DNA of 64,000 nt from Bilabrum cf. latius (GCA_965178125.1 OZ237765.1:62001-126000), one strand, 5' to 3'. Counted from the stretch's first letter, positions 1,516-28,949 are shown. Translations and numbers: made by a program. Notes: generated by a model from the sequence alone, not told the origin.

Positions 1516-3603
1516 TTACCCAACCAAAAACTTTCCGCCCGGCCCGCTCGCCCACGCCAGGCTCGCATCCGTCTCCACGAGCCACCCGCCCTCCGAGTCG
1601 CCGACCTCTTCCCGCTGCACTGCCTCGCCCGAGGCGACTGCCCGCCGCAGGCGCACGTCCCTGGGCCGCTGCCACCTCCCTGTCTCCTCCTGCAGGTGCA
1701 CAGGGCCCTCCCCCTTCCCGGGCCCACCCCCAAGCACTCCCGCCCCCTGTGGCCTGCTCGACTGCCCCATGGCCCCCCTCCACAGGGGACTCTCAGGTGG
1801 TACACCCAGCACCCCCACCCCCACCTCCGCCCCCACTTCGGGGTCACCTCCGAACTCCACCTGGCCCCTCTTCCTCCTCCCCCCGCTACCCCCTTTGAAC
1901 CCCTTTCCCCCTCTCCTTGCCCCAGCCTACCCCCCCAGCGGCGCCATCTCACCCGTGAAAGCCGCTTGCCACCAGGGGAACAAATGCTTCTCCATGTCTT
2001 CGCACAGCGCTTTGGAGGGCTTGGACAACAATTCCGATTGGCCCATCTGATTCCCAGTGCCATCGCATTCCCGCCGCAGCACGTAGGCCAGCATCTGCCA
2101 GTTGTCCCCAGTCACCACGCTGCCAGACATGGCCAGATCCAGCCCATCCCAGTCCTCGGGCTCGGACCGGGGATCCCTCTGCCTCAAAGGGTCCACGATC
2201 CTGGGGATGCCGCCTTTCGTCTGGTGCCAGTAGCCCTTGGGGTAGTACAGCAGTTCCCCCGGCATGAGATCCGCCCACCGGCAGGATGCCCTCTGCACGA
2301 GGGGGAATTTCTTGAAGTCGGGACGGAACATGTCCACCTCGCCCACCTGGTACAGGAGGGCAGTCTGGTTCGCGGGGCAGATGACCCACCGTTTGACGCC
2401 CGCCAGCTGCAGCTGCCATGACCCGCTGTGGATCGCGTCCCAGTGGAAGTTGATCCCAGCCCCGGGGGCCCCCATCGTCACCATGTCCCACCGCGTGATG
2501 TCCAAGAACTCCTCCATCAGAGCCTGCGAGCTGAAACCACCCTCCAGCCAGAAGCGGTCAGACCGGAACAATGGCGGGATGACGTGCCTCTCCGGCGCCC
2601 CCTCCCCCTCGGTACCCCCCTCCCCCTCCCCCTGCCCCTCCCAATCCATGCCAGTGTGCCCCCTCAGCTCGTCCCACAGAGCACGGGGGGGGCGGTAGAA
2701 GGCGTAAGGGGTCCGGAGCCTCGCGCCTGCACCCGGGCCCCTCCCCGGGTCATCCTCGTGAAACACGGACAAAATCCTGCGGTCCTGCTCCGTGGCGTTC
2801 CCGCCCCTGGCCCTCTGCTGCGCGGCGCGGATCATGCGGAACCTCTTCTGTTGCGGGAAGAGCTCCCTCTCCCAGCGGCCCACCCGCTTGAGCAGGCGCT
2901 TGACGGCCTCCACCACTGGCATATCGAAGGCCTGAGCCAGGGTGCGGTCGAGACCGTGGGGGTACAATCCGGTGTCGCTGATGGGCTTGGTCTCGTCGCC
3001 CGGTCGGATCGTGCCTGCGCGCACCTGCTCGTTGTGTGTGGCGAGCGCCTGCTTGCGGCGCTCGGCGGTGTTGGCCTTGCCAAACCAGCGTGCCAGCGAG
3101 GTCGCTGTGATATTCTTGTGTGGAAGCGGTAGACCAATGTCTGTGAGTATGAATGACTCCCTGCCCTCCAAGTAGTCGCGGTACTGAGGCAGATAAATAT
3201 CCGCTGCCCGTATTCGGGCCAGTGGCGCCAGAGGGATCCGCTGGAGCCCTTCCTCGGCCTCCCGCTTTGCCTCCTCGAGATCGACCATCGCTTTCTGCTC
3301 CTGGCGCTCGCATTCCCACATATTGAATGTCGCACTGTCGCCAAAAGGGTCCAAGTCGATCGAATGCTCGAGCCGAGTCCTGGAGTCCTGAATGTTTCCC
3401 TGTCGCATCTCACTCACAGCCACATTATTTAAAACACCCGGATCATTCGGATTCTCCTAGAGAGCGAGCAAAAAATAATGCAGCGCTCCGCTCTCGTTGC
3501 CCTTCTGGCCTTCACTTATTCCTCGGTCCATGAAGTCATTCACTCGATCCTGGCTGGTAAGGGCAAGCGTCGTCACTGCAGCCATGACAATAAGAACAAT
3601 CAT
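1516..3603 (-). CDS. Signal-peptide + TPR + JmjC/cupin-like 2-oxoglutarate dioxygenase
   Basis: ORFs 3457-3840, 1927-3423 and 1516-1860 share a frame and are joined by TAG at 3457 and 1927; the stop is TAA at 1516. Hydrophobic N-terminus MIVLIVMAAV. A TPR (ALHYFLLAL*ENPNDPGVLNNVAV) spans a TAG. JmjC motifs HWD...GVKRWVICP...PGELLYYPKGYWHQT. The start could instead be 3774. Confidence 0.75.
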
Positions 3604-3770
3604 GATCCCAACGCACGACACTACGCGCCGATACGAGGCGCAGTTTGCAGATGATGTGTGTGGTGTCGGCTTGACCCGGATGCCGACAGTGCGGTGCAGC
3701 CTGCGCTGGCACCGGCGGTGCTGTAACATACAAACCGAACCTGATTCATGCGGCCAATAATTTTCACTTT

Positions 3771-4703
3771 TCATGGCACGCCCGCCTTCCCTGGTCCGCT
3801 TCCGTCTTCCCCTTTCACCCACACGCAGGCCTCCACGCACACCTGCGCCCGATCAAACACGACCCAGCTGGCCCACGGCTCGGCCACCTCGCCCTCCGAC
3901 CCCGGCGCACTCGTCACGCGAGTCCACCGCCCTGGCCTGAGCACCCCACCAGAACCAGCCCCCTCTCCGTCTGCAAGCCTCCCCAGGGCCGCAGCTGCTA
4001 CGGCAGCAGAAACGGGCCCGCCCACAGGAAGCACCCCTGCTGCAGAGCCACTGGTCTGCATGCCCCCGCTGGCCCCCTCCGTGCCCTCCACCGCCGTGTC
4101 GCCGTCCTCCGCGTACCAATCGTCACACCACTCCGCGTCCTCGGATGGATCGGTGCAGCGCTTGCCCAGCCACATGAGGCTGTCGGCATCCCCGGGCGCG
4201 GCGCCCCGGGTGGTTCCGCAGAGCACAGGGGCCTCCCTCCCGAGGGCCGCGCGCACCAGCAGAAGCATGCACTCGTCACACCCCAAGGCCCCTGCATCCG
4301 CCAGCGCGCCCTCGGGCCGGTCGAACAACCTCAGCCCACGGGGACAGCCCCCCAGCCCGGTAAGGCCCGAGGATGCCTCACCAGGCTCGTCGATCGGAGC
4401 CATGGCACCGTGGGCCAAAACTGCCAGCTCCTGCCCCTGCCGCACCGCCGTCCACAACAGCCGAACATTCCGGGAAACGTCCCCTTTCCCCCCCTCCGTT
4501 GTTCCCTGGCGAAGCACAGCCTCGCTCCCCTTCGCCAGCCCTTCCCACCGCGCCTCTCCAGATCCGGATCCCGATCGCGCCCCCTGCATGGCCCACTTGA
4601 CTCGCAGGGCGCGCTGGAACGCGCTGAAGGCTGCGTGTTCCCCAGCGTGCCGGCAGCGGAAGGCACCGAGCACTTTCATTGCCTGTGGGCTGCTAGCCGT
4701 AAC

Positions 4704-4749
<46 letters not shown>

Positions 4750-6372: not shown

Positions 6373-6484
6373 AATCGCGGATGGAAGGGGAGGCACCAGT
6401 TCAATTTACCTAGGAAGCTCAATATCGAATCAGTCTCTCGAATTCAAAAATTCGCTCGTCACACCAAAACTCAGACAATGCTTG

Positions 6485-6737: not shown

Positions 6738-6777
6738 GTCGTGAACGTCCAGCCATAGCATGCTTCCAGGTCGTATC

Positions 6778-9700
6778 TCAGCCCATGGGTCTCCATGGCT
6801 CGGGCAACATGCCGCCGATCACCAGCGGATCCACCCACGCCTGCGTCTCCAGCGCATCCACCGACCCGCCCACCGGCACCAGGCCAGAGCCGCCCACTCT
6901 GCCGCCTACCAGCGCCCCGCCCGCCTTAGAGCCAGATGCACCGGACCCCCCTTTACGCCTCCCCGCCGCATCCGCCACGGGCCCCTCCCACGCCCCCTCC
7001 ACCCCCACGGCCAGCACCACACGGGATTGAGGCCGCAGAGCCACTGCCTCCCTCAGGCCAAACCACGCCCCCGCGAATGGCACGCACACCCCGCCCTTTG
7101 CCCCGCTGTTCCTCAGCCAGGCATCGTCCCGGGGACCCTCCGAAGTTCCTGCTGCCAGCCACACGCAGCTCCGATCGCGGATCGCATGCCTCACGGCAGC
7201 CTCCCCGGCCCCATCCGTCAGAGGTCCCCCCAGCCCCGGGCCCGGCTCCCCGCCCGTGGCCCCCCGATCATCGCCATCACGATGGTGCCCCGGGCCCAGC
7301 TCGCCCACCCTCGCGCACGGGTCGTCTTCGTCACGGCCCCTCCCCCGCATGACCGCCACAAGCGAGGCACCAGGGGTGCACTGCACTGCAGCACCCCCTC
7401 CCACCCCCTCCTCCCGCGGCCCCACTGCAGGCCCCTCTCCGAGACATGTCCCCCTGCAGTCCACAGTGAGGCAGTGCCCCAGCCCCAGCCCCGCCAGTCC
7501 ACCGAGCACAGCCGCATCCCCCGCCGCCGCCACCTCGAGGGCCCTCTCCACGGAGCTGCCGTCCCTCAATGAGGCACCCGCGATCCACCGGTAGGCCTGT
7601 CCCGCCGTGCCCTGGCCCAGACTGAACCCTGCTGCACTCGTCACACCAGAGGACCCTGTGCCCTTGCTAAGCTCGGGGCCCCCTGCCTCGGCTGCGGCTG
7701 CTCCTCCGCGCCTACCTCCACTCGTCACACCAGCGGACCCCTGCACGTGGGCGGCAGCCGCCAGCGCCCTTGCACAGGCAGGGTGCATGGCTCCCGTGAC
7801 TGCCATGTGCCTCAGAGACCGGAACAGACCACCTCTCCCGTCTCCACCTGGCCCTCCGCCCGACACTTCCTGCAGGTCCTGTGACAGCGCCGCACATGCA
7901 GCCCGTAGTGCCCTGGGCCTGTCCCTCTTTGCCCACCCAGGTGCGCTCCCACCCTCCTGCACCGCCACCCCCGCGCCACTGCCGGCCCCCTCGCCGTCCC
8001 CCTCGTGTTCCCTGTTGAGCAGAAGCGCGCTCCTCCTCTCCCCCAGCTGCTGCCCATGCAGCACACCCCCCGTCCCCGCCCCTGCCTCCCACTCCCCATC
8101 CGAGCAATCGGCGAGCAGCTCGCCCACCCCCGAGGACACCTGCCCCGATCCCGGCACAGGTCCACCTGCACTCCCGCTGCCACCCACCTGGGCGCCACCA
8201 GCAGCATCACCAGTACCGTCACCGTCGCTGTCGCTGTCGTCTTCCTCGGGGCCTTGCCCGCCAATAGGTGAAGCGGCATGGGCTGCCACTGCTGCCCCTG
8301 CTACCCCTTGGCCCGTCCCTGCTCCGGATCTTCCGCTGGGCCCAGTGCCGCTTGGAGCAGCCAGGTGTCGCCAGCCAGGCAGCGCGAGCAGCGGCGCAAA
8401 CTCAACGGATAGATCCCTCCAGGCACTCGCGCACCCATCGGACCTGCCGGCCAGCTGCCCCACCTGCAGTGCAGTGCACACGGCGCCCAGCCCCAGAGCA
8501 TCCCACCCCAGCCCAGCCGCCTCCTCCTCCTCCGTCGGCTCCCGCAGCGTCCGCCGCAGCAGCCGCACCCTGCCCCTGCCCGTGTCCACGCCGCCGCCAT
8601 CTTCACCTGACAAAGCACCCCCTGGCTTGCTTGTGCTCGCACCTGTCCCTGCCTTGCGTCTCCCAGCCCAGCTGCCGGCGGATGGAGGCTTGTACGCCCC
8701 TGTGCCTCCTGTGGTGGAGCTGCTAGCTCCCTTTGCTGCAGTGGCTCCTGCTGCACCACCATCACCTCCTGTAGATCTAGATGGGTGCAGCACACCCGCC
8801 GCGGGTTTGGCCATCCTCCTGAGCATGTCCAGCATCGCCTCTCCATCCATGTCCACAGCGGCAGTCACCTTCGCAAAGGCCTCCTGCCTTGGCCGCATCT
8901 CGAGCGACCTCAGCAGAGGGAGGCAGGCGGCCACGAGCATGGTCCGGGGGTGCATCCTGTGTGCCCCGCTGACTCGGAGGGTCCTGAGGGGGCTCCCCGC
9001 TAGTCCATGCCTCAATTCGATCGGAGAGGTGCTGGCGCTCAACCCCCTTGTGGGGTCACTTGCCCCCGCTGGACCCCTGCCCCCACCCCGGGGGCTCCGC
9101 GGGGCCATCGCCGGCAGGGTCACCCTCACTTCCGCTGTCTCCTTGGGGTGGCAAGCCATCGCCACGCGGCCCGCCACTCCCAGTGACCGCCCCACGGTTA
9201 GGATGGGGGACGCCCTAAGTGACCCCACGGTGGGGGGGAAGGACAGGTCCAGGTGCTCCAGGCGAGGCACGGCGCACAGCAGTGCAGACAGGTCCACAAC
9301 ATGTCCGTTGAGCTGCACAGTGCTCCCACCGCTGCCCCCTGCCGTGGCGCCTTGCACCCACATGCGCCGCATAGTCTGCCGCAGCACCCCCACGGCCACG
9401 GGGCCCCCAACTGGGGAGGGGCCTGCCTCCTCCCGGGGAGCTGCGCGGGTGCCTGTAACGCACCACCTGTGACGAGTGCGCGGCGCCGTTACTGCCCCAC
9501 CAGCCCCAGCTCCATCCCTACGCCCGCCCAGATCGATTCCGTCTGCCCCCCGCCCCGCCGCACGGTGCTCGTCTTCATCATCCCCACTGCCCGCCTCATC
9601 TTCATCGCTACTGCTGCTGCTCAGCGCCAGCCCACGCATCAAGCCCCCCCCCTGCCCACCCCTCCCTGTACCTGGCCTGCCGCCCCGCCCAGCACCACCC

Positions 9701-11916
9701 CTCCCCTCAGATGCAGGCCCCTTCCCCCTCGCCCTCCCGCGCCTGCCACCGCCCCCCTCTGGCCCTCTCGCGCCCCGGCCACGCACGGCCCCTAGCCCAA
9801 GCGCCTCCCTCGCACTCGTCACACGCCCTGCCATCTCTTCTACGCCCGCCTTGTTCCCCTCCAGAGGATCCTCGTCCATCGCCGCCCCTGACAGCAGGAC
9901 ACCCGCCGACTCGGCCGCCCCCGGCAGATGCAGCGGCCCGGTCTCCAGCTCGAGCTCGAGTGCCCGCAGGGTGCACCAGGGCCCCTCCGAGGAGACGTCG
10001 CCCGTGGCGGTGTGACGAGCGGCACGCTGCCCCAGATCGACGCACGTGGGCAGCAGCCCGCCCCCTGCCTCCGCCACGGCACACGCACTCGTCACAGCCC
10101 TAGGGTCCAGGTCCTCGTCCTGCAGACACCTGGCCCTGCACCGCAGCACGAGGAGCCTCTTGAGGGGCCGCAGCAGCTCCAGCACCGCGGCGAAGGACAG
10201 GCACCGAGTGGTCTCCGCCGGGAGAGCCAGCGCCCGCAGGCACTCGCATAGGCCCGTGGTCACCGGCGCCAGCATGTCTCGCACCAGCAGCTGCGTGCGC
10301 CCCACGGCCCGCCCAACCTCCCTGGGCCCGCACAGCCGGGGGTCCAGCGCCTCCGGCCCCCCTCTGAGCCCCTCCCCGCCCACTGTGACGGCCCACCCAC
10401 GCACGGACACCAGCGGATCCCCGCTGTCCGTCTCACTCGTCACACTCATCGGCTGGCTAAGGTCGAGGTACCGCAGCCCCGCACCCCCCCCTGCACCCCC
10501 CCCTGCCACGCCAGCCCCCCTTCGATGCAGCGCCTGCACCAGCGCCCGCGCCCCCTCGGGGTCCAGCCGGTGCCCCCGCAGATCCAGGGCCCGCCAGCGC
10601 CGGCCGGTGCCCTCCCCCCCCAGCACGAGGTCCGACACGTTCTCTATCCCGAATCGGTTGCAACCGCTCCCGTCCTCCGCCTCCGCGGTTGCAACCGCCG
10701 CCTGCCCCGCGAGCGCCAGCCTCCATTCCCTCAGCTCCCGCACCAGCCCATCATCCGCCGCCTCTCCGCCCGCCGAGGCACGCAGCGCCAGGCGCTCCAC
10801 CCGCATGGGATCGTCCTGCTGCTGCTGCTGCTCCTCGCCTTCACTCGTCACACCCTACCGCCGCACCGTCTCCTCCACGGTCTCGAGTCGCAGGGCAGCC
10901 GAGCGAGGCACCACCCTCGCCCCCGCCAGCCGGAGTGCCCCGAGCTGGGGAGCCCCCTTGCGGAAGGCGCGGATATCCACGGCCCCGCAGCCCCGCGCGT
11001 CCATGGCCCGCAGGCCTCGGGGAACAGCGACGCCCCTGAGGGAGGCCAGCGAGGCGCCATGCGTGCGCCCCAGCAGCAGCACCCGCAGGCCGCGCCAGGC
11101 CCCCAGCAGTCCCCAGTCCCAGGGGAGCCCACTGGAGGAAGACAAAGAGGAAGAGGCGGATTGGGCAAAAGAAGAAGTCGAGCCAACGATCCCGCTGCCG
11201 CTTGCAGCATTGGCCTGCCGCATCGCCCTCCCCATTCGTTGCGCCCTGCGGGCCATGTCCGAGCGTCTAAGCTGCTGCTGGGCCCGCCTCGCGTCTGCAT
11301 GGATGCTCTTCTCCAGCTTGCTGCCCGGGGGCGCCCTCGTCGAAGCGTCGATCGACTCGGCGCTCTGGGCGCCGGTGGGCAGCTAGGCGCCGCGCATGTC
11401 CAGGCACAGGAGGGCGTCCCGGGCGGATTCGCCTGCGAGAGGGTGTTCGGTCCATTTTAGCTCCGCGGCAGGTCCCTGCTCCCGGCCGCCGGCGTGCACG
11501 TGCTCGTCGTCGGCCGGCTCCCGGGGACCTCCCACCATGCGAGCGAGCAACGACCCGAGCTCCTCTTCCCCGAGCGACGCACCCTGGAAACTGAACCCAT
11601 TTGCATACGGGAATGTAATTGGTGAGATTTCTCGAGTCAAGCGCGACAGTTCGTCTGATGGGATGGAGTCCAGGCGCAGGGACTTGCTGGCGTGGCACTA
11701 CTAAAAGCTGCGAAATCCAGCCCACGATGCACCTTGCAGCGGCTTTCGCGCCTGAACAAGGTGCATCTAGTCGGTCGAAAGGCTATCCAGGTAGCCTGTT
11801 CGAACCGTGCGCCTCAAGTAGGCCCTGGAATCTTCCGCTATGAGGCCTGCCATCCCATCAAGTAGAAGCTCTTCCAGCGATGCACCACCGGATGTCTGCA
11901 CAAAGCACTCCGCCAT
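6778..11916 (-). CDS. Large (about 1710 aa) leucine-rich-repeat-like protein with Gly/Ala/Ser-rich insertions
   Basis: One frame runs from ATG 11916 to TGA 6778 with TAGs at 11767, 11701, 11698, 11383 and 10855. Scattered LxxLxLS motifs (WRALDLRG, LRYLDLSQ, LEHLDLSF, LRTLRVSG). Confidence 0.6.
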
Positions 11917-12451
11917 AATTGAGTCAGATCGATTGAATATTGTAAAAGTTCAGTTGTCACTTCTTGAGAGACTCAACAACAAAGAAATGGTTGTGAACCT
12001 GGCTCGCATGGATCGGGCATTCGAAACCGGAATCAGCCCGAGGCATACGGCGCCCCGGGCCGCCGCCACTGGCAGCGACAAACACCGTGCGGCGCTGCAA
12101 ACACCGCGTTAGTCCACCCGCACTGCTCCTTGCAGCCCACCATACTACTCCACTCCGCCCCACCGAGCTCCCAGCTCCCACAGGCCATGCCAGTTGGGTG
12201 CCTGCGACCCCTGGTGCGTCAAGTTGTCCCGCTGCTGGGCCGAGGGCCGTCTCTCGGGCTACCCAGCGCTGCGTGGTCCCAGGCCCGGCCAACTCATGCT
12301 GCCATGCACGATCGCAGCTGGCGGTGACTTGGTGGTGTACAGCACTTCTGAACCTCGGCTGGATCCGAGACATCGGGGGTCTCAGCTGAGCTTCACGACC
12401 TAGCTGCACCCTGCCGGCCTGGAGGCGGTCTGTCTTATGCCGGTACAGTGA

Positions 12452-13063
12452 TCATGTCGCTGCTGCACCTGATGCCATCGCAGAGGACGAAGAAGAGGAC
12501 GAATAAGACGGTGTGGTGCTCGCAGCGAGCACGGGCCCGGCTCCCAGGTCCAGCGGCTCCCTCCTCGCGTCCTCCTGGTCCATCTCCAGCAGCTTCGCCT
12601 CAATCATCGCCACTTTGTCCGAGAGCCGGGCTAGACCGGCTAGTTTCTGCTCTCGTTCCCTCGCTCGCATTGTCTGCCAAGCCGACCGCGCATCGCTCGC
12701 TTTCTCGTCTGCGGTACGGAATTCCCTTGCTCTGGACCCCGTCTAGCCGTGTCCGGAAATGGTCCCGGATTTAGAGAACACCATCTCTTTCGCCTCAAAT
12801 CGAACAGTAACGTTCTTATCGTGCAGCTGAGCTCCATCCATGCCAAGCTGTGCCTCCCGCGCTTCCTCCCTACTCCCCATAGTCACAAATGCAAACCCTT
12901 GAGGCAGGCCACGACGGGGCCCTGACTTGAAAAATGCAATATTGACGTCCTTGACTTTACCGTACTTGCTAAATGCAGTGAGCAGGTCATATTCGCGCGC
13001 ACGCGTACTCAGTCCGCCAACGTGGAGCCGCACCTGGCTATCATCCCTAGCAGAAGCAGCCAT
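12452..13063 (-). CDS. RBM18: RRM RNA-binding protein, RBM18-like
   Basis: RNP2 LHVGGL and RNP1 QGFAFV, preceded by the FFKSGPRRGLP stretch typical of RBM18. The C-terminal KVAMIEAKLLEM motif lies downstream of an in-frame TAG at 12743. Stop TGA at 12452. Confidence 0.8.
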
Positions 13064-13419
13064 GGCCGCAGAAGTCAGTTAAGATTTGCAGCAGATATCA
13101 CACAGAAAGCTTAAACTATCCTATGTTCGTAGAGAGAAGAGCGCAGCGCGCAGTGTGGTGTTTGTAGAGTTTGTCCAAGAAATGCTGTCCATCAATCGTC
13201 ACGACGACTGTCGGACGCACTGCATCGACGTGCAGCCAGACCTGCGAGGTGTCCCCCGGAAAGACACCCCCCAGATACAGCCCCGGTCAATGACGACCAA
13301 AGGCTCTTCTCCAGGTCCGACCAGGGTCCCCGGAATGTGCACCTAACCCGCCAAGGACCGCCCGCTAAGCCGTATGCTAAGCCCAGACATGCCTACCTAA
13401 ACCATGTCAATCCGCAGAT

Positions 13420-16400: not shown

Positions 16401-19400
16401 ACAGACCCAGCAACACCTCGGGGTCCGAGAGACCAACACTCTCCGGACCGTTACTGTCCCCCGGCCGCATGAGCCCTGCCTCGTTCTCGTGCACGATCCC
16501 AGGGAGGGGCACCCCGTCCCTTCTGGCCCTTGCAAGCACCAGCCGAGTGGCCTCCACCTCGACCCGGCGGTGCACGTGCTCCAGCCCCGGTGACTTGCAC
16601 ACGATGCCGAGAGCCACTGCCCTCCGCTGCATCATGGTGGGCCGCCTGGCCCCTTGCCCGCTCCACCTCCCCTTTGGCCACCCCACGGCCTCCTCCATCG
16701 CGCCCGGCCGCACCCCGGCCAGGGTCTCCATCACAGTGGGCCCCTGCGCGTCGGCGCCCTCCCGCCCGTGCCCATCCACCGCCCGCCCGATCTCGATCCC
16801 GCCGTTGAGGCGCCGCTTCTCCCGCCGCACGATGTTCCTCACCCAGGGAACAAGGCCGTCCACCCAGTTCGGCGCGCTGGCATGCCCCGCCCCCTCCACC
16901 CCTTCCTGACCCGGAGCGCCTCCCGCCCAGAGCCCCAGCTCCCACAGCCTCCACAGCGATGGCTCCAGCGCCACCGCCATGTCCCTCGCCCTCAGCTCGG
17001 CTTCCTCCCTGGAGACAGAGTCGGAGACCAGCTCCTGCGCCAAGGGACACTCGCCCCAGGGGAAGGGAGGCTCCTTGTGCACGTCCTCCCCGTGCCCTGG
17101 ACCCAGCTGCCGGTCCACGAGCGCCCGGATGCCCTCGGGAGTGAGCAGGCTGATGGGTTTGTCGCTCCACCTGCTGGCCGAGATGTACGAGGCGCCCAGC
17201 CCGCTGATCACAGAGGGGGGCGCGGACACGGACCAGAACGACGCAGGGGGCTCGCTTGGTAGGGGTACCAGGTCGCTGCTCGATTCGTTGCTGGGCGTGA
17301 CGGGAGCATGCGAGCCGTTGTTCCCTGCCGCAGCCGGGGCAAAATCTGTGTCCAGGCTCGACCGCACCGCCGCACGCAAGAGCAGCCGATCATCATCCCC
17401 ATCGTAGGCGCTGCTCCCGATCGACCCATCGCGCCCTTCCCCGTGGTCATGGTTGAGCCCCAGCTCCATGGGGACCAGCCGAGTCACAGGCAGGGCAGCG
17501 TGTTCCCAGTGCATCCCCAAAGAGGCCCTGGGAGAGAACCGAGAGCAGGTCACGGCAAGGACGCCCGGCCCCGCTCGCTCCACGGCCCCTCGGATGGCAA
17601 GCCCCTCTGCCCCACCACCACCACCGCCAGCAGCACTGCCCCCTAGCCCTTGTTCCCCAGCCCTCCCGAGGCAGTCCTCCCGAAGCGAGTCCACAGCGGC
17701 TGCTCGCATGCCCTCCTGCAGCTCCCGGCGGGTGAGCTGCACACCCAGGTGGGGGTGGGCCCCCTCCGAGGTCGCGTTCCCAGTGGCGTGCATCCTGTGC
17801 ACTGGACCGCCTGTCTGCTGCCCGTCCCCGTCCACCAGTCGCCTCAGTCCGACTCGCCGCATGCACCACTTGACCGTGTGCACGGCGAGCCGGCCCAGCA
17901 CGCGGCCCGTAGCGGCGAGGAAATCCGAAATCTCGGAGAAATGAGCCGGCCACGCCCCCTGAAGATTCCAGCCCGCGGACTGTTCCCTGAGAGCGGTTGC
18001 AACTACCTCCGCCGCGGCACCCGATCCGTCCTCCCGCTCACCCACGCCCCCATCGTGGCCTCCCGCACCCTGCTGCTCCACGAGCGACCATGCGCTGCAC
18101 CCGGCCAGCACCCCCTCCACCACCGAGTCGTCCTCCTCCCAGGCCAGCTCTGCCCTCCAATAGGGACACACACGCAGCCCGCGCTCCACCATCCCCGCCG
18201 CCCCCGTCCACTCGGGCGCGAAGGTGGTCGCCCTCACAGGATTCGCCCGAGCCCTCGCCCCTGCCAGGGCCCAGTGGTCCTCCTCCTCTGGAATCAAGTG
18301 AACGGACATGCCAGTCAGCCGGGCCGACCCCCGCGTGTGATACTCCGCCATGAAGGGCCAGTGCGGCTGCTCCCCAGTTGCCTCCCGTCTCCATGCCTGC
18401 AGCACCGCTCGATGCACAGGGTCACTCGCACCCTCTGGCCCCTGCCTCCCTCTTCCTCGCTGCTGCTGCTCCTCGTCACCTCTCTCTACACCCCTATGGC
18501 CCGATGCAGAGAGCGCCCTTGATGCTCCCGGGTCCTTGAGCCACACAGCGGCCTCCTGGTGTGGACCCAGGCCCATGGGGGCCTCCTGCCCTGGCAGTGC
18601 ATCTGCGTGCAGGAAATCGGGCGCGTGCCCAGGCATGCCCAGGGTCACGGAGGCCTGCACCAGCCGGGGGTCCGCCGGGTGATCCACGGCCATGGTGGCG
18701 GCCATGGCGGGCTCGGCTGCCGAGAGGAGACCCTTGAGCTGCAGCCGGGTTGCGATGCCGTACGATGTCATGAAGGTGTCCCGCCTGTAGTGCCGCGCGT
18801 GCGACTGCAGCATGGACAGGTCGTTCCTCCACTCGGCAGATCGAACCAGGGCCAGGTGCACGAACCATGCTACTAGAGCGGACAGGGCGCACGATGTGAC
18901 GAGTGATCCCATGGGTGTGACGAGGGCTGGGCCGAGGGGCAGCTGAGCCCTGGCCTCTTCCACTTCCTGCTCGTTGCCTGCTTGCCTCTGAGGCTGCTCA
19001 TCCCCTTCGCCCTCGCCGTCGTGTTTCTGCACCTGGCGGTCTCTATCGCTTGCATGCCCACTCGTACCATCATGTATACCACCTTCACTACTACTGCCCT
19101 CTGCTGCCCCCCGCCTACACCACAAAATAGAGTCCCCCATCTCTGCCGCCAGCCCGGCCAGCTCCACCACCAGCAGGACGGCCCCCATCGAGGGCAGCAC
19201 CATCTGTCTCTCCGCCACCACAAAGCCCACCTTCACCAGAGCGTGGGACGCAGGCACATACGGCAGGATCAGCAGGGTCAGGGACAGCAGCAGCCGCCAC
19301 CGGCGAGACCTCCTCAGCGGCCTCAGCCTGCCTCTAGAGTCGCGGCTGGGCCCGTCGCACGAGGCCGCCAGCCAGACGAGGGCGAGCAGGGTGGCCCACG

Positions 19401-21720
19401 CGGCGCCGCTTACGAGGTTCCGCCAATCCCACGGTGACGTGACGAGTGACATGGTGTTGTGCTCGTGGGAGAGGGCGAGGGGCAGGAAGCACCGACCGAG
19501 CGCCGTCACCTGCACCCACGCGGCGCTCGTGGCCCGCTGCCAGAACGCGTCCAGTCTTGCGATCGGGTTGTGCATCCCCGGGGCGCTGAGCGTGTATCCC
19601 CCCGAGAGTATCTCGATCCTGGCGACGAAGAGGGAGGGAGAGAGCAGCAGCAGGTAGATCGTTCTGGCCCACGAGATGCGGCCTCGACTGAAGGCCCCCT
19701 CCGGTGCAACGGAGCCATAGATCTCCTCCTCCTCGTCCTGCTGCTGGCTCACCTTGGCAATCACTCCGCCTTTGCCCTTTGATCCCTCACTCCGTCTGGA
19801 CCCACCCTAACTACTCTTCTCTTCTTCATCTGCCTGGTCAATCTTGTTCCCCACACACCAGGCCACCGCACCGGGCCCCACACCCACTGCATCCAGCATG
19901 TCCACCAGCAGACCCCACCACGAACCACCATGCACTGCCCCCTCTCCAGCCATGGACCCTGTTGCACGTCCGGTGTAGACACCCCTGCTCACTGCGGCAT
20001 CCACAATGGCCATGGTGGCCGGCCATACGAGCGCTGTCTCCTTGCAGAGCAGCCCCAGCACCACGAGGACTGTGGCCAACCCAAGCGATAGCAGGTGCGC
20101 GCACAGCGGGGGATCCAAGCCCCTGCCACGCCCCGGGATATCCCCCCGGCGCACAGGACCCCACCCTGGGGTAGCCCTGTCCTCGCACCCCAGGGCCCGC
20201 CCCAAGGGCATGCAGCTGCACCCCTCCAGCCCCTCGAGCGAGCAGTCCCACACGACGGGCTCATCCGCGCTGCCCCACACTGGCACCCCATCGCCCGTGC
20301 CCCCCTCGCGCTCCCAAGTGCTCTCCCCCGAGTGTGAAGTCGATAGCAGCGTTGCTGATATTTCATCGCCGCTACCAGGTTGCTCTAAAAGCCGCTTGGA
20401 TCGAATCACGGGTGCACTGCACGCATGCGCGCAGGGGATGCAGCAGGGCCAGATGCCGGACAGCGACAGCCACCAATACCACGTCATCCGCACGCTGGCT
20501 TCATCCTCGGACTGTTCCCTGGCCCGGTCCATGTCCCACGCTCTCACCACGTCAGGAGACGTGGCCAGCACGACGGCCATCGCGGCGATGCAGAACAGGT
20601 CGCATACCACCTCTGCCCTTGAGGTCAGGTTGGCCACCACCTCGCTGTGCACTGGGTGGCAGGCGAACAGCAACGAGGCCGCCAGCACCCTCCACCGGGG
20701 CCCAAACTGAAAGCAGGCGAAGGTGCCTGTCTGGGCTTCATGTTCTGGACGTGGATGCCCATCGCTACCCGCCCCGTCCTCCTTTGGCATGCCACCATGG
20801 CCGCCATGGCCACTGCCGAACCCTTCACCTTTGCGCTTGCCATTGCCATTGCCCCTGTCCTGGTCTCCCTCCTTACAGTCTCCACCCCCGTGCCCCTCAT
20901 GCCCCTCCTGGTGTTCATCCAGCAGCATGAGCATGGCCATCACCCGACTCACCCCCGCAGCCAGCCCCGCATGCATGAGCACTGACGACAGGTGCAGGAC
21001 CCACCCAGTGCCCCCTTCCTCCGCGGGGTGTCCCCAGCGAGACCCCGCCAGCTGCCTCTCCATCCTGAGGCCGAGCACTACCAGCGGTCTCCAGCTGTTG
21101 TGTGTCCACGTGTGGTTATTCCTTTCGCTGCCCATCATCGCGTTGCCCCAGAAGTCGTGCTTCCAGAGCCCCCAGATGCTCTGGGACCCCGCGTGCACGT
21201 CGGGGTTCGCTTGGATGGCCACTTTGTCGTCGTACGTGAAATCGTGGGACAGGGTCGGGAGGTACAAGATGAAAGCAGCCGTGAATGCAAGCACGGCAGA
21301 GAGCCACGGAGCAGGTCCAGGAGCGCACGCGGAGCCAGCCCGTGAGCAAAGTGCACTTGATCGGGTGCTCCGCAGCAGGCAGCTGCCCGGCATTCGGCAT
21401 TGTGGCGACTAGCCAGAACTGGTCGGAGCTGCGCCTTCCACGTCGTTATCCATCACTTGTCTTGTATGGGTGTGCTAGCCCGAATCCTACGCAATACAGT
21501 CGGCCGGCGCCGAGGAGTTGCTCCCCAACGCATGAGGGCTGTCGCCCCCGCTCCCGCTGTCCTCCTCATCAGCGCATTTGTCCTGCTCCATCGAATGCCT
21601 TTGCTTCCTAACCAAAGTGCTCAGCTGACTTACACTTGATGTCGGTGCAAATGCAGTGATTTCATGGATCGGAAGGGAACTCTCGTCTGCCCAGGCAACT
21701 GCACGGCTCTTCTACTCCAT
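13420..21720 (-). CDS. Very large (about 2770 aa) TMTC-type protein O-mannosyltransferase-like membrane protein
   Basis: One frame runs from ATG 21720 to TAA 13420 with seven TAGs (21712, 21487, 21475, 21409, 19807, 15496, 14785). TMTC motifs FTYDDKVAIQANPDV, HDFWG, SWRPL, LFACHPVHSEVVANLTSRAE, LCKETA, HNP and KVGFVVAERQMVLPSMG. Confidence 0.75.
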
Positions 21721-21920
21721 TCAACCGCAGTAAATACGTTCGCACCGAGCCAATGCTATTACGTACACATGTCGTCAAACATTCAAGCCAACACGAAACC
21801 GTGCACGCTGCAGATTTGTGCCATACATTGCAAATCTGGTCCCATGTTCAAGTTGATGATGAGTGCAGTCTGTCCTAAGTCAGCCACCACAATACAATTT
21901 GTCTGCATCCAGAACAACGT

Positions 21921-22307
21921 ATGCAAGTCCTTCAATCGCCATTATTCTGGCAGCAGGTAGGTGGGGTGCTTGGCGCTACCGGTGTGCTTGCAGGAGCCCT
22001 TGGATCGCACGCCTTGCCTTCCAGGCTGCGAGCCCTCAAGATCGACGACCAGGAAGCCAAGGACAAGGCAATAAAGCAGTGGGGCATTGCATCTAACTAT
22101 TAGCTCATGCATGCTGTTGCTCTAGTCGCTGGCGCGCCGGCACTCCGGAGGCCTGTGCCAATTTGCGCCGGTTGGGCAGTAGGAACCATTCTCTTCTCAG
22201 GCTCTATCTACGCCGGGGCTTGGATGCAAGACAAGAAATACTCGAGGATGGCACCGGTTGGGGGTATGCTTATGATGGCGGCGTGGGGTGCGATTGCATT
22301 CCTGTGA
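21921..22307 (+). CDS. TMEM256: TMEM256/YgdD (DUF423) small membrane protein
   Basis: GVLAGALGSH...WGIASNY*LMHAVAL...GTILFSGSIY...APVGG...W. TAG 22101-22103 sits at the Y-Q-x-x-H position of the family. Stop TGA. Confidence 0.9.
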
Positions 22308-22422
22308 AACGTAGCAGGTTGCCTGGGCAAGCAGCCCACGTCACGGCAGTTCGGAGATGCCTTTTTGGAATGGTTCGATGGGAGAAAGCAGAATTGCAAC
22401 TTGTATGCCAGTGCAAACCATG

Positions 22423-22542
22423 TCATCTCTCTGTCCTAGCTCGCTTTGCGGCTGGAGTGCCATCTTCATCATCTGCTCGTGCTGCCCCAGAGCTCGCCGA
22501 CTGCCCACTCCCAGCCTTAGCCCCTCTTGTGCTGCTTGCAGA

Positions 22543-22575
<33 letters not shown>

Positions 22576-23487
22576 TGTCCCTATGCCAGACCCGAACCCC
22601 GTATCCCCCTCCCCATGAGCCTCCTTCCTTCCCTCGTCCCTCTCCCTCGCCCTCTTCCTGCCCCCGGCCGCACCACCCCTTGCCCCCCTGCCCTCCCACG
22701 CCCCCGCTGCCCCCCCACTGGCAGTGGCCCCCGCCTGCAGATCCCCCTCGGTTGCAACCCTCACGAAGTCCACCTGCAGAGACACGATGCCCTGCCGCTC
22801 AGAGGCTTGGTGCATGCGCACCACCACAGGGGTGCCTACCTCGAGCACTTGCCCCTGCTCCTACTCCTGCTCCTGCTGCTGCTCCTCGACGAATCCCTCC
22901 CCCTCTCCATCCTCCACCGCTGCCCCTTTCTTTCTGTAGGGCTGGCTAGAGGCAACCCAGTGCCCTGGAGACACCGCAGGTGTGTCTCCAAGGGGTCCCG
23001 TCTCGCCGGTGGCCTCGGACTTGTCCGCCTTGGATTTGGCGGAGGCACCTCCGCTGGCGGCCTGCTCGCTTCCTTCTGGGTTGTACACGCACCTACCTTC
23101 CATGCCTCGAGCGGTAACAGTCGCATTAAAGAGATTCATAACAAGCATTCCGACGTGATCAGAGGACCACTGCGTCACACGGGCCACCATGTGCTCGCCC
23201 TTGCGAGGCGCAAAGAGTACTCCAGACACCTTCGCATCAACGTACGACCCAGCTCCTCCGTTGACGAGCGGCAAACTTCCTCCCCCGCCATCAGATGCCT
23301 CTGGAAATACAACGCTCGAGTAGGACAGCAAAACCCCGCCAATGTCCCTGCGGTACCTCATAATGTAGTCTTGATCCAGTTGCTCTTGCACGTATTGCAT
23401 CGGCTCCTTCTGAAACACTGGGGGCACGCATGCGCTTATAGCTAGGTCTGACGAGTACAAAGCAGTTCCAACTGCATTACGCCGCAT
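22423..23487 (-). CDS. RPA43: RNA polymerase I subunit RPA43-like
   Basis: MRY...GGVLLSY...VLFAPRKGEHMVARVTQWSSDHVGMLVMNLFNATV (Rpb7/A43 fold). The remaining OB strands (LEVGTPVVVR...IVSLQVDF) follow TAG 22861, which lies in a Q/E run. Stop TGA at 22423. Confidence 0.75.
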
Positions 23488-23657
23488 GTCAAAGTGGCCC
23501 AAAAAGATAAACCCCACTTTGGCACCACGCGAGGAACTTGCCCGTGCAGCGGAACCAGACAGTGTACGAACGCGCGGCGCCAAGAGCTTGGATTCACGAC
23601 AATCTTGCCCATTCGAAATCGCAGATTGATATGGCTATCCCATGAATAGTTTAACGC

Positions 23658-26600
23658 ATGGACAAGTACGCAACTGTAGCTGCGAGTTCCCTAGTTGGAA
23701 CTTGCGCTGCTGTGTATCTGGCCTGGTTGGGCCTTACTGCAACTGCCTTTGAGCCCACCTTCGATGACCACGTTTTGCTCCAGCACCCTGTGGTATCTGG
23801 AAACGAATCATGGAGTTTCGCGTGGACTCGAGATTTCTGGGGAGAGGACATAGCCAGCGATGCCTCTCACAAGTCATGGAGACCTCTGGCAGTCCATTTT
23901 TTCATATTTCAAGCAGCGTGGAGTCCAGCTTTCTTCCTCGCGACTGCACGACTGATCACAGTGGCATGCATGATTCTTGCAGCTGCTGTACTAGCGCTGC
24001 TGTGGGCGACGCGTGCAGCCACAAGGGCGCACTCGTCTATCCCGATCTTGCTCGGCGCCTCCTGGTTCGTCCTGCACCCCAGCCGCGCCGAGTTGGTTGC
24101 GCAGGTGGTGCTGCAGCCGGACTCCATTGTGGTGCTTCTATTTGTCCTTGCTCTATCAGTGCAAGCCGGACGCGCTGCCTGCTGTACCAGCACCGCTGGG
24201 GCGCTGCTCGTGACAACCGCCGCCCACGCACTGGGGTGCATCGCACTGCTGTTCAAAGAGACGGGCATCGCCATCAGCGCAAGCCTGGTGGCATTCGATC
24301 TTCTCCTCGTCGGTAATCCTGGGAGGCTGCATCGCGCTGCAAAGCATGTGCGCACGACGGCTTGCCGCTACACCCACGCGGCCCTCGGCATCGCGTGCTT
24401 TCTGGCGCAAATTCGGCTCCGGATGCTGGCGGCAGGGGACCGCCCGCCTCGATTCTCCTCCCACATGAACGGGGCTGCGGCACGTGCCGAGGACTGCAGC
24501 CGCTGGGCGGGTCTCGCACACCAGGCCGCGGCCGCGGTCGGCATGCTGCTGCTGGGGCGGCGGGCGGGGGTGCTGCACGACTGGGGGGGGTAGGCGTGGG
24601 TTCCGTTGGATTGCGCGGCGCCGTGGAGCGACCCGCGCTGGCTGGAGCTCTGGTCGGCTGCTGCGTGCTGCTGCTGTATCGCACTGGTGACGGGCTGGGT
24701 GCTTGTGGCAGATGCCTGGGCAGTCTGCGTAGGAGGGTGCGAGGGCAGTAGCTCGGACAGAAGCAGAAGCAGGGGCAGGGGCAGGGGCAGGGGCAGGGGC
24801 AGTGGCCACGCCCAGCCTCACAGCGATTAGGACGCCTCACCGGCGCTTATTGACCCCAACCGCTTCCTGCTGTGGTGCAGCTGCAGCGCACTGCTGTGCC
24901 TGGCCCCCACGGCCAGCGTCCCCTTCCCCACCGGATACCCGCTCGCCGACAGACAGGCCGCCGCCGCCATGCTTCCCGCCGCCCTCGGGATCATGGAGCT
25001 GACCCGACGGGCCATGGGGGTGCTGGCCCCGCGCCACAATGCCATGCACCCCGCTGGTGGGGTCCGGCTGGCCCTCGCATGCGCGTGGGTGGTCGGACTC
25101 GCGTGGGTGGTGGCCCCGTGGCCGAACAGGACTCGACTCGCCCTGCAGCGGTGGCGGACGACCGCCACTCTCGGGGAACAAGCCCTGGCGGTGGCCCCCC
25201 ACAGCGGCAAGCTGTGGGCGGGGCTGGCCACGGTGCGGCAGGGGCAGCTGCAGGGGCTGATGAGCCAGCCGGGCGAGTCTAGGCCGTGCCCATGCGGCTT
25301 GCCCCCACTGCCGTGCAGACCCAGTGAACCGTGGTGTGACGAGTGCAGGCACGACGCGGTGCTGCAAGCGGCGGGAGCGCTGGCGGAGCATGGTCTGCCG
25401 GTACCGCGGGGGGAGGGCCAGCTGGGCCCCGGGGGTCCTTGTTCCCTGGAGCTGAGCCCGCCCTGGGTGTTCGCGGCGGAGCCGGTGGCGGGGCAGTGCG
25501 TGTCCTTGGCGACCAGGCGATGGGGCGGCGAGGACACTCGTCACATGGGGTGGTGCGAGTGGCTAGATCCAGGTGGTGGCACCCACGGTGGGGCGGAGGG
25601 GCTTTACTGCGGGGCACCATGGGCAGGTGGTGCGAGAGCGGGAGGGGCAGGGAGGGCCACTGATCATGATCTGGGGGCTGATATGCCGCTCCCGCCCTCC
25701 AGCAGGCCGACAGCTCTCGATGAGACTCCTCGGCATCCCCAGCAGAAGCAGCAACATGTCCTTGCACCCGAGCCCGCTCGCATGCGGCACTGGATCCTCC
25801 CCCCCCTTGCCAGCGCGACAGAGGCACAGCAAGCTCGTGCCACTCCCCTATCCCTCTCCCCCGCTGAGCTGTCCCTCTGCGCCTGTTCCCTGGACCCGTG
25901 CATGGCCACTCACCGGCTCATGGTGGCCTCGCAGCTGCTGCAGTGGGCTGCACCTCAACCACCGGTTGAATCTGAAAGCAGCCGTAGGTGCACTGCATGG
26001 CGGCGCAAGGCGCTGGGTGTTGCTGTGCAGCTGCTGGAGCAGTCCTCCGACGTGCTACGAGACAGGCAGGACAGAGGGCTCCTGCAGATCGACCGCAAGG
26101 GGCTAGAGACGCTGCCGCTGGCCCTGGGGCAGCTGGCGGCCGGGTATGCGCTGCAAGGCAATGCATCCGGGAGGGCACGCGCGGATCAGGAGGCCATGGA
26201 GCAGGCAGGGCTTCTGCCCGGTGACGGGGGTCATATGCTCGGTGCCATGGCAGCGCAGCGGGCGGGGGATGGTGCTCTATTTCGTGAGGGGCAGCGAGTG
26301 GCTGGGGCTGGGGGTGTGGAGCTGGAGGCGTGGGTGCAGGGGGTTCTAGGGCGGCTGGCCGAGGCAGGTGGCGAGTGGGAGGAGTGCACTGCCAGGCGAA
26401 GGCAGGCGGGGCTTCTGCTCGTGGGGCCGTGGCTGGACGAGGGCTGGGAGCCGACTGGATCTAGGGCCGGGGCGCTTTCGCTGGGGGCAGATGGGGAGGC
26501 TGTGGAAGGGGAGTGGCGATGGGGCCATCGATTCGTGAGGGGTCTGCAGCAGCTCCTGGCGGCTGGGAGGTGTGGGGTACAGGGTGCATTGCACGGCAGT

Positions 26601-26888
26601 TCAGCGATGGAGGCCCTTGAGCCCGTGGTGGCCGCGAATCGGGCCTGCTGGGAGGTCGTGTGGCTACCCCGGTGGGTTTCACTGGGGAGGGGGGCCCGAG
26701 TGCGGCGAGAGATGCTGGGGCAAGAGCCGGAGGGGCTAGAGGGGGCCTGCTGGCGGGCCAAGGAGGAGCTACAGAATGTCATGGGGCATGATGCGATTCA
26801 GAGCGGGGTTGCCTGGGAGGTTGCAGCCGATGCCCGTCGCCTGCTGCGCACCATCGCCTTGATCCGAAAGTCTACAGGTGTTGATTAA
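23658..26888 (+). CDS. Second, more divergent TMTC-like membrane protein (about 1076 aa)
   Basis: PTFDD, RDFWG, SHKSWRPL, HPSRAELVA, LFKETG, LHDW, SDPR and TGYPLADR motifs. In-frame TAGs at 24591 and 24828; stop TAA 26886-26888. Confidence 0.75.
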
Positions 26889-26988
26889 TCTAGGGCGGAG
26901 GCTTGTCGTAGACCCAAGGATTCATTCATGCAGGAAGCCCAAAAAGGGCTGCCTCTTCCGGACCTTTAATTCAATAGGGTATTTTTCT

Positions 26989-28949
26989 TTAGCCTTCAAA
27001 GTCGTTCCAATCATCGTCGTCATCCGGATTGTCCTGGCCGGAATGATCGTGGACTTGTCCTTCGTTCTCGAGCGGCGCCACTCGCAGCTCGCCCTTCCCC
27101 AAGTGGCCCTTCGAGGGAGACACGCCGGCTGAATGCCGGCCCGCAGGTGCCTTGCGGTGCGATGAGGGTGCTTCCAGCGCGGCAGGCACAGACAATGCTT
27201 CGTCCGCAGCCCCCCGGGACGATGCATCACCCCCGGACCCATCATGCGAAGAAGGCGATGCGAGCACAAAGCTGCCTACCTGCAGGAGCCCCCCAGCTCT
27301 TGCCTCCCCTCCCCCACCACCATCGCCACCCTCGTCCCCGCCCCTGTTCCCCGCTCCCGCCAGTGGGCCCCTTCCCAGTGCAGCCAGCTCCTCGTCGGTC
27401 AGGCCAGCTGCCAAGTCGCTTGCAATGCCGCCGTCTCCTGCCCCATCCTCGCCATCGCCCCCTGTCGCACCGCTGCTGCTACCGGCCTACCCCGACTCTC
27501 CAGCCCCCCTCCCCGCCCCTGCAGGCAGAGTCTCCAGCCCCCTGTGTCTCCGCACGAATGCCAAGTGCTCCTGCACCGCAGACCTCAGTTCCCCCGCAGG
27601 CGCCCTCTCTCTGAATCCTATGCCCACGTATGCATGCCCTCCGCCTGCGCTGCCCCCTCCCTCGCCTCCTTTCTTCTTGGTCTTCTTCTTCCGCTCCGCT
27701 CGGAGAACAAAGTACCGGCTCGAGTCCACGGCGGGCTCGAGCCAGAAAGACGGCTTGAGCGCGGCAAGTTCCGCTGGTCTAGGGCGCCGCGGGACCACGA
27801 TCGGGGCAGCAAGCAGCAGACCCCCTCCATCGCCACCCCCCTTTGCACTTGTGCGACTTGTCCCAGCCCCCGAGGAGGCGCGAACACCCGGTCCACCGGT
27901 GGATGCAGCAGCGGCGCCCCTGCCCCCAGGCACCAGCTCCCCGCGCGCCGATGCTATCGCCGCCCCAGACACACCCCCGCCCGCCCCACCGGTCCCCCCC
28001 TCACTACCCCCGCCCCCGCCACGCAGCAGTCGCACCACAGCCTGTTGCCCCTGCTGCCACAGCTCGAGTCTGGCCGTCGCCATGGGCTCCCCCAGCCCCC
28101 AGGTCTGGGCCACGGGACCGCGGCCGGAAGAGGCCGCGGTCCGGGGCAGCCGGTACACGAAGCACTCGTCACACCGCATGAGCAAGACGGGCGGGAGATC
28201 ATCGTCACTATCGGTCTCGCCCTCCTGGTCCTCCCCTCCGGTGTGTTCCCCGGCAGATAATGGGGCGCCAGATGGGGCGCCAGAGGCAGGGGCGCGGGGC
28301 CGTGCAGGTGTTAGGCCGGTCTCGGGCCGGCTGCCACTGGCACTGCCCTTCAGTGCCTTGGCCGCCATTTCCAGGGAGCGAAGGAGATCAGACCAAGCCC
28401 CATAACCGGAATCAGCGGTGGCTCCTGCCTCCCTAAGGCCTGGTGGAGGGCGTGCCAGGGCCGGATCGCCCGGTGGAGGCGGGACGGAGCCTGCGACCTG
28501 GCAGCCGATGGTGCGAGCTGCTCTCCAGCACCATGCTCGCCATGCGTTTGATACGGATTGAATGTCTTTGATATCCCCGGGATCTCGCATCACCGCCTCG
28601 ATGAGCGTGGGAATCTGCTCGTCCAATGCAATGGCGGATGCCTGCACTTTGCTACCGAAAGTGGAGCCAGGAACAAAGGCTGGGAGCCAGCTGGGCGGCG
28701 GATCCCGGTTATGGCTTGATAAGAACTCTTTCGGTTGTTTGGATAAACGCTGCAGGCTCGCCAAATGGTCTGTCTGCGACGATAAAGATCGCACCAAGTG
28801 CAACTGCGATTGGAATGACGGCCGCCCCATTCCCTCGATTCGAAGCGGGACGCGATACTCACCGATAGGAATACCCGAGAAGTGACTGCAGACCCAGGCT
28901 GGCTTTCGGATTGACCCATCGTTCGAAACTGGGTGCCGTTTGGCTACAT
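26989..28949 (-). CDS. NECAP: NECAP (adaptin ear-binding coat-associated protein); probable intron 28774-28862
   Basis: PHear domain ECFVYRLP...W...EPAVDSSRYFVLR...AYVGIGFRER. The C-terminal DDDWNDF (WxxF adaptor-binding) motif is reached only through TAG 27487. Stop TAA at 26989. A GTGAGT...TCGCAG phase-0 intron is likely; the start is 28949 or 28919. Confidence 0.8.

Follow-up and report, generated by a model that had tools for sequence, protein, structure and literature searches.

This locus raises the question of how UAG is read in the organism from which it derives, and whether UAA is read in the same way. The window, as the term is used below, is the whole 64,000-nucleotide stretch that was analysed (Bilabrum cf. 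latius, GCA_965178125.1 OZ237765.1:62001-126000). About 20 eukaryotic genes with long exons were recognised in it, and its G+C content was 59-70% throughout and ~65% overall. The window is very probably nuclear DNA of a GC-rich (~65%) eukaryote in which UAG is read as glutamine and UAA and UGA are the sole terminators. The evidence from conserved columns, orthologues and codon counts supports the proposal of the initial annotation that UAA and UAG are decoupled in this lineage.

In-frame TAG codons

When TAG was read as glutamine, 20 stop-to-stop frames of the window held 64 in-frame TAGs in 18,075 codons. This agrees with the earlier figure of about 60 internal TAGs, the present count covering the whole window and thus extending beyond positions 1516-27489. 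A stricter set, the best codon-score segments of 22 frames (15,366 codons), retained 43 TAGs, with at least one in 17 of the 22 frames. Glutamine was also encoded there by 79 CAA and 471 CAG, so that CAA is in use for this amino acid, as had been noted. TAG made up ~7% of the glutamine codons, and ~22% in a lower-GC relative, L001, a metagenome contig of 6,940 bases and 56% G+C. The GMPPB of L001 is 86% identical to that of the window, and the two share a gene order consisting of the frame at 55904, then GMPPB, then a DGAT2-type acyltransferase (DGAT). This order breaks after DGAT, where a 710-codon frame of L001 stands in the place of the alpha-galactosidase gene of the window.

One in-frame TAG lies in exon 2 of GMPPB, in a column where glutamine is near-invariant (Table 1). 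The pectin acetylesterase frame matches the Pfam family PAE at 9e-69, and its TAG at 43551-43553 falls in a column with glutamine in 45 of 60 homologues, the others having E (7), K (4), three other residues and one gap. A third TAG, in the PHear domain of NECAP, pairs with a glutamine of the solved NECAP1 structures; the whole-sequence E-value of that comparison is weak (0.008), and the match to Pfam DUF1681 is 7.5e-16. The TAG column of the PYROXD2-like gene (query residue 393) is variable and uninformative, with H (8), Y (6) and S (5) leading and glutamine outside the six commonest residues. For DGAT, the TAGs of both the window and L001 stand in one frame between two conserved halves and must therefore be read through in both organisms.

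The codon alignment of the first shared gene, at 55904, gave three informative TAG columns, all in conserved N-terminal blocks. One is TAG in both sequences and one is TAG in the window and CAA in L001; 30 codons beyond the latter, in the block ECxVWRCq, a CAG of the window is TAG in L001. Another two TAG columns fall within a leader that could not be aligned. Under the standard code UAG terminates, and here TAG was found inside conserved domains. Together, the conserved columns, orthologues and codon counts support UAG as a sense codon that is read as glutamine.

The integrity of the TAG codons was followed in contigs of sequencing runs, compared over window positions 10001-30000. Four runs of one sample contain all words of the window (share 1.00), and three runs guessed to be RNA (X5, X6 and X7; no run is recorded as RNA) contain only part of them. 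The X5 contigs, although very uneven in depth over this region, were colinear with the window over 13348-15122 and 17629-21804, covering the TAGs at 14787, 19809, 21411, 21477, 21489 and 21714. The contigs of four runs differed in no letter from the window, and the TAGs that they cover read TAG. Where covered by contigs, the in-frame TAGs are neither in removed introns nor edited. Introns of the window are few, canonical (GTGAG...CAG) and lower in GC than the exons. A joint from 28773 to 28863 (CT..AC on the plus strand) was present in X5 but absent from X1, a run that is DNA-like; this fits a spliced NECAP intron. Contig ends were not used as evidence for 3' ends, X5-X7 having no cover at about 13165-13347 and thin cover over 26.7-28.0 kb.

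TAA and TGA at the ends of frames

Neither UAA nor UGA occurs within coding frames over the ~17,000 codons of the window and L001. The initial annotation had reported no internal TAA, and none was found in the 15,366 codons of the best segments, which were also free of TGA. The same held for L001, with 16 in-frame TAG, no TAA and no TGA in 1,799 codons (28 CAA and 30 CAG). Eleven of these TAGs, with 16 CAA and 10 CAG, are in the 710-codon frame (L001 4807-6939, minus strand), which has no Pfam family; from the trinucleotide counts of L001, ~6e-4 frames of this length without TAA or TGA are expected by chance.

Because the frames were bounded by TAA and TGA, the absence of internal TAA is partly built in, and tests independent of frame boundaries were added. 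On the sense strand of the window coding segments, the counts in frames 0, 1 and 2 were 0, 12 and 33 for TAA, 0, 231 and 216 for TGA, and 43, 69 and 75 for TAG. The corresponding counts for L001 were 0, 9 and 13 (TAA), 0, 24 and 40 (TGA), and 16, 27 and 10 (TAG). In a six-frame test, every TAA, TAG and TGA received the codon score of its 40-codon flanks, in which stop codons counted as neutral. A range of thresholds was applied, 0.25 (the 75th percentile of true frames) having proved too strict. At a threshold of 0.1, the flanks were coding-like on both sides for 18 of 676 TAG, one of 269 TAA and one of 1,332 TGA. The sole TAA that passed, at 44620 (minus strand), is in low-complexity sequence and does not share the phase of the surrounding 1,802-codon frame; no Pfam family matched the frame to which it belongs. 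When TGA alone was taken as a stop, the TAAs of coding frames were confined to the first 55 codons or the C-terminal end, and a Pfam family was found in none of the six TAA-containing TGA-to-TGA frames whose flanks came nearest to coding.

If the ratio of TAA to TAG followed that of CAA to CAG (0.168), the window should contain 7.2 TAA, and the probability of seeing none is about 7e-4. For L001, in which CAA and CAG are used about equally, the expectation is ~15 TAA and none was seen. On these counts, GC bias alone is an unlikely cause of the missing TAA.

Four frames were found to close on TAA (1516, 13420, 26886 and 26989), in agreement with the initial annotation. In each, the best codon-score segment reached or approached the TAA (Table 1), and downstream of each the DNA is AT-richer and the read-through rich in Cys, Trp and Arg. 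Across the TAA at 13420 the codon score fell from 0.38 to -0.26; the X5 contig over 13348-15122 is colinear across this TAA, which is therefore not within a removed intron. Read-through extensions past three of the terminal TAAs gave no Pfam family in any case. These comprised 218 codons from 1516 to the next TGA, 75 codons from 13420, and 241 codons from 26886 to the next TGA (27611), the last running antisense across the convergent NECAP gene. The TAAs at 26886 (plus strand) and 26989 (minus strand) end convergent genes only ~100 bases apart. The NECAP TAA had been placed directly after the WNDF motif; the frame in fact ends ...WNDF-E-G-TAA, with the TAA two codons past the motif, and a TGA follows five codons later. 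The DGAT frame of L001 ends in tandem TAATAA. The loss of coding signal at the four frame ends, with the tandem end in L001, supports a function of UAA as terminator.

The other 18 of the 22 frame ends are TGA, a count that matches the initial annotation, and not all of them are necessarily true gene ends. The TGA at 51186-51188 is part of a splice donor (GTGAG) internal to the alpha-galactosidase gene. The surroundings of those at 39317, 52391 and 58763 resemble GTGAG, and these TGAs may not mark real gene ends. In two of the 22 frames, one of the two codons preceding the TGA is TAG, compared with ~0.12 such cases expected (43 in 15,366 codons, 44 positions; P about 0.007). Both TAGs (42477 and 43926) could be relics of former TAG stops; alternatively, UAG may still terminate near 3' ends.

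Table 1. Coordinates of features in the window, counted from its first nucleotide
Feature	Position	Strand	Details
TAA end, TPR/JmjC (Cupin_8) frame 1516-3852, 778 codons	1516..1518	-	best segment to codon 777/778
TAA end, TMTC-like frame 13420-21720, 2,766 codons	13420..13422	-	best segment to codon 2765/2766
TAA end, TMTC-like frame 23655-26888, 1,077 codons	26886..26888	+	best segment to codon 1054/1077, 23 codons short
TAA end, NECAP (DUF1681) frame 26989-29046	26989..26991	-	best segment to codon 684/685
In-frame TAG, NECAP PHear domain	27487..27489	-	pairs with Q of solved NECAP1 (1tqz, 6rh5) in ...LQDHF...
NECAP intron, 89 bases, GT..AG	28774..28862	-	GTGAGT...CAG; joint 28773->28863 in run X5
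TAG two codons before TGA of pectin acetylesterase	42477..42479	-	last codons AAG TAG CTG TGA
In-frame TAG, pectin acetylesterase (frame 42471-43898)	43551..43553	-	motif FFqGGGWC
TAG directly before TGA of 1,802-codon frame 43923-49331	43926..43928	-	last codons CGG TAG TGA
DGAT2-type acyltransferase frame	52391..54154	-	two in-frame TAG; TGA end; L001 orthologue ends TAATAA
GMPPB exons	exon 2 54413-55309, exon 1 about 55688-55897	-	placed by tblastn; intron GTGAGA...CAG
In-frame TAG, GMPPB exon 2	54845..54847	-	motif WMDIGqPKDY; Q in 119/120 homologues
In-frame TAG, frame 55904-58765	56147..56149	+	TAG also in L001 (codon alignment of orthologues)
In-frame TAG, frame 55904-58765	56372..56374	+	CAA in L001, block PVCG..qLDS
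Small RRM-domain gene	12452..13078	-	between two large genes; TGA end; one in-frame TAG; Pfam RRM_1 4e-11
Examples of GGTGTGACGAGYG sites	4270-4282 (-), 7635-7647 (-), 25333-25345 (+), 34116-34128 (-), 56720-56732 (+)		

Rival readings and the decoding machinery

Besides the partly built-in zero, several points weigh against UAG as glutamine with UAA kept as a stop. The sample is small: the 64-kb window and, for the relative, a single contig of 6.9 kb. Two other TAGs of pectin acetylesterase are in variable columns (glutamine in 5 and 3 of 60 homologues), and all seven TAG-bearing DGAT columns, in a variable linker, pair with residues other than glutamine or with gaps and are uninformative as to the amino acid. 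At an assumed TAA:TAG ratio of 0.05, the zero in the window is not significant (P(0) 0.12). The zero in the homology-anchored subset (2,797 codons; 8 TAG, 12 CAA and 56 CAG) is not significant by itself, about 1.7 TAA being expected there. L001 without its 710-codon frame retains 5 TAGs and ~3 expected TAAs (P about 0.05). The sequence GGGTAATG at 1516 may represent a weak GT donor, and X5 is labelled 'RNA? (probably DNA)'. The mechanism, a tRNA-Gln(CUA) and an altered eRF1, is reasonable and is one that we infer.

An ordinary code in which UAA and UAG are both glutamine (UAR=Gln, NCBI table 6) would have TGA as the only stop and TAA decoded by tRNA-Gln(UUA), TAA being too rare to appear at ~80% G+C in third positions. 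Such a code is highly improbable here: UAA was not found as a glutamine codon beside 43 TAGs in the window and 16 in L001, where 7.2 and, at 56% GC, ~15 TAA were expected. The scarcity of TAA overall (269 trinucleotides against 676 TAG on both strands) and a third-position G+C of 0.80 in anchored coding sequence speak for it, as does the unremarkable zero beside only eight anchored TAGs (~1.7 expected), but TAA is excluded from frame 0 just like TGA and the coding score collapses at TAAs. Read-through at the NECAP TAA would be harmless, with TGA five codons on; passing the TAA at 26886, in contrast, yields 241 junk codons antisense to NECAP, and the DGAT of L001 ends TAATAA. Scarcely credible is the proposal that the in-frame TAGs are untranslated, as parts of introns or pseudogenes, assembly errors or sites of mRNA editing, under a standard code. 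Many TAGs do lie in low-complexity or poorly conserved stretches and some in leaders upstream of likely starts (64 in whole frames and 43 in best segments). This reading is nevertheless contradicted by the TAGs at near-invariant glutamine columns within conserved domains. TAG also swaps with CAA and CAG between relatives, the introns are of the GTGAG...CAG type and full of stops, the contigs of four runs show only TAG at covered sites, and TAA- and TGA-free frames of 1,600-2,800 codons cannot be chance.

Two other explanations keep UAG as glutamine and differ in how it is handled, and each is unlikely. UAG could be position-dependent, read as glutamine within genes and still terminating near the 3' end through merely weakened eRF1 recognition. 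The two frames in which TAG closely precedes TGA (at 42477-42479 and 43926-43928) would fit, as would the GMPPB ends of standard-code relatives on TAG. Relic TAG stops read through to the next TGA give the same pattern without residual termination, however; no window frame needs TAG as a terminator, and two cases are a small number. In Blastocrithidia and Condylostoma, UGA is read by a tRNA-Trp(CCA) with a shortened anticodon stem. By similar means, and without any dedicated tRNA-Gln(CUA), UAG could be read by the ordinary tRNA-Gln(CUG) as a near-cognate, perhaps with changes elsewhere than in its anticodon, once eRF1 stops competing, which we consider improbable. Published work reports readthrough of stops by near-cognate tRNA-Gln in standard-code organisms (PMC13192750), reading of UGA by a tRNA-Trp with a 4-bp anticodon stem (PMC13092985), and reassigned codons for some of which cognate tRNAs were not found (PMC5304391). 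The last also describes tRNA-Gln(CUA) genes in UAR=Gln organisms, which counts against near-cognate decoding. So does the abundance of TAG: at ~7% and ~22% of glutamine codons in the window and L001, and in 17 of 22 window frames, it calls for efficient decoding.

For UAG as glutamine beside UAA and UGA as stops, the decoder would be tRNA-Gln(CUA), which a single change would derive from tRNA-Gln(CUG), because reading UAG alone as sense demands an anticodon unable to pair with UAA. Recognition by eRF1 of a third-position G after UA would be lost or weakened, with recognition of UAA and UGA kept. Once TAG was freed, new TAG codons would arise from CAG by C-to-T change, and the shares of TAG among glutamine codons in the window and L001 fit such an origin. 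ARAGORN found no tRNA genes in the window, L001, or two further sequences, L008 and L047, and an Rfam scan of the window and L001 gave no matches. No eRF1 was present among the frames of the window and L001 scanned against Pfam, no search aimed at eRF1 having been made in the window.

Host lineage, gene content and known codes

The two further sequences were considered as additional members of the reassigned lineage and rejected. Their GMPPB (62-63% identity) carries TAG directly after the conserved C-terminus, in accordance with the standard code. Since GMPPB ends there by ordinary termination on TAG, the reassignment is a derived trait of the lineage of the window and L001.

Two single-gene trees bear on the host. 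The GMPPB tree (37 rows picked from 120 matches) placed the window and L001 together (100/100) in a starred 10-row clade of unnamed sequences and one labelled Symbiodinium sp. KB8, outside Viridiplantae and opisthokonts. In the PYROXD2 tree (FastTree, 37 rows, supports not printed), the window adjoined Cafeteria roenbergensis and two unnamed sequences, and Cafeteria was the best named match, at 42% identity. These trees hint at a protist of the stramenopile-alveolate-rhizarian (SAR) group, perhaps a bigyran stramenopile. A chlorophyte origin was also tried. UGUAA is the poly(A) signal of Chlamydomonas, and it was not enriched after the stops of the window (4 of 20 gene ends within 1.2 kb, TGTAA being an average TAA pentamer). 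With the position of the window outside Viridiplantae, this origin was rejected.

The genes of the window include those for a TPR/JmjC protein, two TMTC-like membrane proteins, RPA43, NECAP, a C2H2 zinc-finger array and a PYROXD2-like oxidoreductase. Further genes are those for a B-lectin protein, pectin acetylesterase, guanylate kinase, alpha-galactosidase, the DGAT2-type acyltransferase, GMPPB and a small RRM protein. The region of the last is covered by contigs of X5 (11943-13144), X6 (11932-13164) and X7 (11999-13103). Over ~22 kb (1516-23733), six genes follow in a row, all on the minus strand and with short spacers. The zinc-finger array at 30831-32666 (minus strand) consists of ~14 near-identical C2H2 fingers (HLGERKHEC.VCGKRFGRAG.LK.HM) without a TAG, and the repeats look recently amplified or homogenised. 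The frame at 36175-38289 (plus strand) encodes a near-perfect long protein repeat, EEEAARKQAE, in more than 25 copies at about 37200-38100. Its sole Pfam match is the low-complexity family HC2 and its end is a tandem TGATGA.

A 13-mer, GGTGTGACGAGYG, has 30 sites in the window at no more than one mismatch, compared with 0.26 expected from shuffles. Most copies fall within coding frames, and most have the sense orientation of the gene; one frame translates to GVTS and another to CDEC, and the third would include TGA. The motif was not found in the 6.9-kb L001. A variant, GGTGTGATGAGTG, occurs in five copies at an exact spacing of 91 bases (58679-59055, plus strand), forming a tandem repeat just beyond the TGA at 58763. 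Several in-frame TGAs of this region have coding-like flanks, so that the end assigned to the gene at 55904 may be wrong or the gene may extend further.

Codes of the table 6 type, with UAA and UAG both glutamine, occur in many ciliates, hexamitid diplomonads, Dasycladales and other ulvophytes, and oxymonads. They share UAG=Gln with the window, presumably through tRNA-Gln(CUA), and differ from it in that TAA of the window is excluded from coding frames and ends genes. Context-dependent codes are those of Condylostoma, karyorelicts and, for UAA, Blastocrithidia. A possible likeness to these is the excess of TAG before the true stop in two of 22 frames; unlike them, the window has frames that never need TAG as a terminator and no sense use of TAA or TGA.

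The closest match is the fornicate Iotanema spirale, first documented in 2017 with UAG as glutamine and UAA and UGA as stops (Panek et al., PMC5304391). The window has the same three codon assignments and the same logic of decoupling; from its sequence, UAG is at conserved glutamine positions, UAA and UGA are not internal, and UAA is at gene ends. The mechanism proposed for Iotanema, as given in that source, is a tRNA-Gln(CUA) derived from CUG with a change in the eRF1 N-domain (T32G in the GTS motif). The organisms appear unrelated, the window having 65% GC, long exons and gene trees that point away from metamonads. The main terminator also differs, being UGA in the window (18 TGA and 4 TAA frame ends) and UAA in Iotanema (PMC5304391). 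According to the same source, NCBI table 15 carries these assignments (UAG=Gln, UAA and UGA stop), its attribution to Blepharisma having been an error. The ciliate Protocruzia tuzeti and two lineages of phyllopharyngean ciliates likewise read UAG and not UAA as glutamine, which was described as repeated evolution (PMC11687900, 2024). The window is a 64-kb, 65%-GC contig with ~20 genes, and its GMPPB and PYROXD2 trees gave no sign of a ciliate origin, but neither tree held ciliate-named rows. In Rhizaria sp. exLh (PMC5304391) and Scotinosphaera (as cited in PMC11687900), UAG is a sense codon with UAA as stop, as in the window, the amino acid being Leu and Ser, respectively, and Gln here. Amoeboaphelidium is cited as UAR=Gln in both papers.

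Beyond the cases in these two papers, no GC-rich, green-algal, aphelid or stramenopile code with UAG alone as glutamine was found in a full-text literature search that covered few subscription journals. Because the same code and mechanism have already been published for Iotanema, the decoupling is not unprecedented. The code itself is known from other lineages, and what is new here is an apparently undescribed GC-rich lineage of at least two members. That this represents an independent, unreported origin of UAG=Gln with UAA=stop outside ciliates and metamonads is put forward tentatively, with a little less than even confidence. Under that reading the lineage might belong to the bigyran stramenopiles (Cafeteria-like) and would number two or more members, 9 GC points apart, and the origin would be recent enough for relic TAG stops to remain one or two codons before TGA or for UAG still to terminate near 3' ends.

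Splits between UAA and UAG are rare, those named in the portions of PMC5304391 and PMC11687900 considered here being Iotanema, a rhizarian, Scotinosphaera and a few ciliates. Each added lineage tests whether UAA and UAG are mechanistically separable, and which changes in eRF1 and tRNA-Gln are involved. Pairing a GC-rich genome with a relative of lower GC is of value because codon reassignment can be separated from drift in base composition. For annotation, gene callers using either the standard code or table 6 would mis-annotate such a genome. The lineage could yield a second, non-ciliate eRF1 solution for telling UAG from UAA, of relevance to the engineering of genetic codes.

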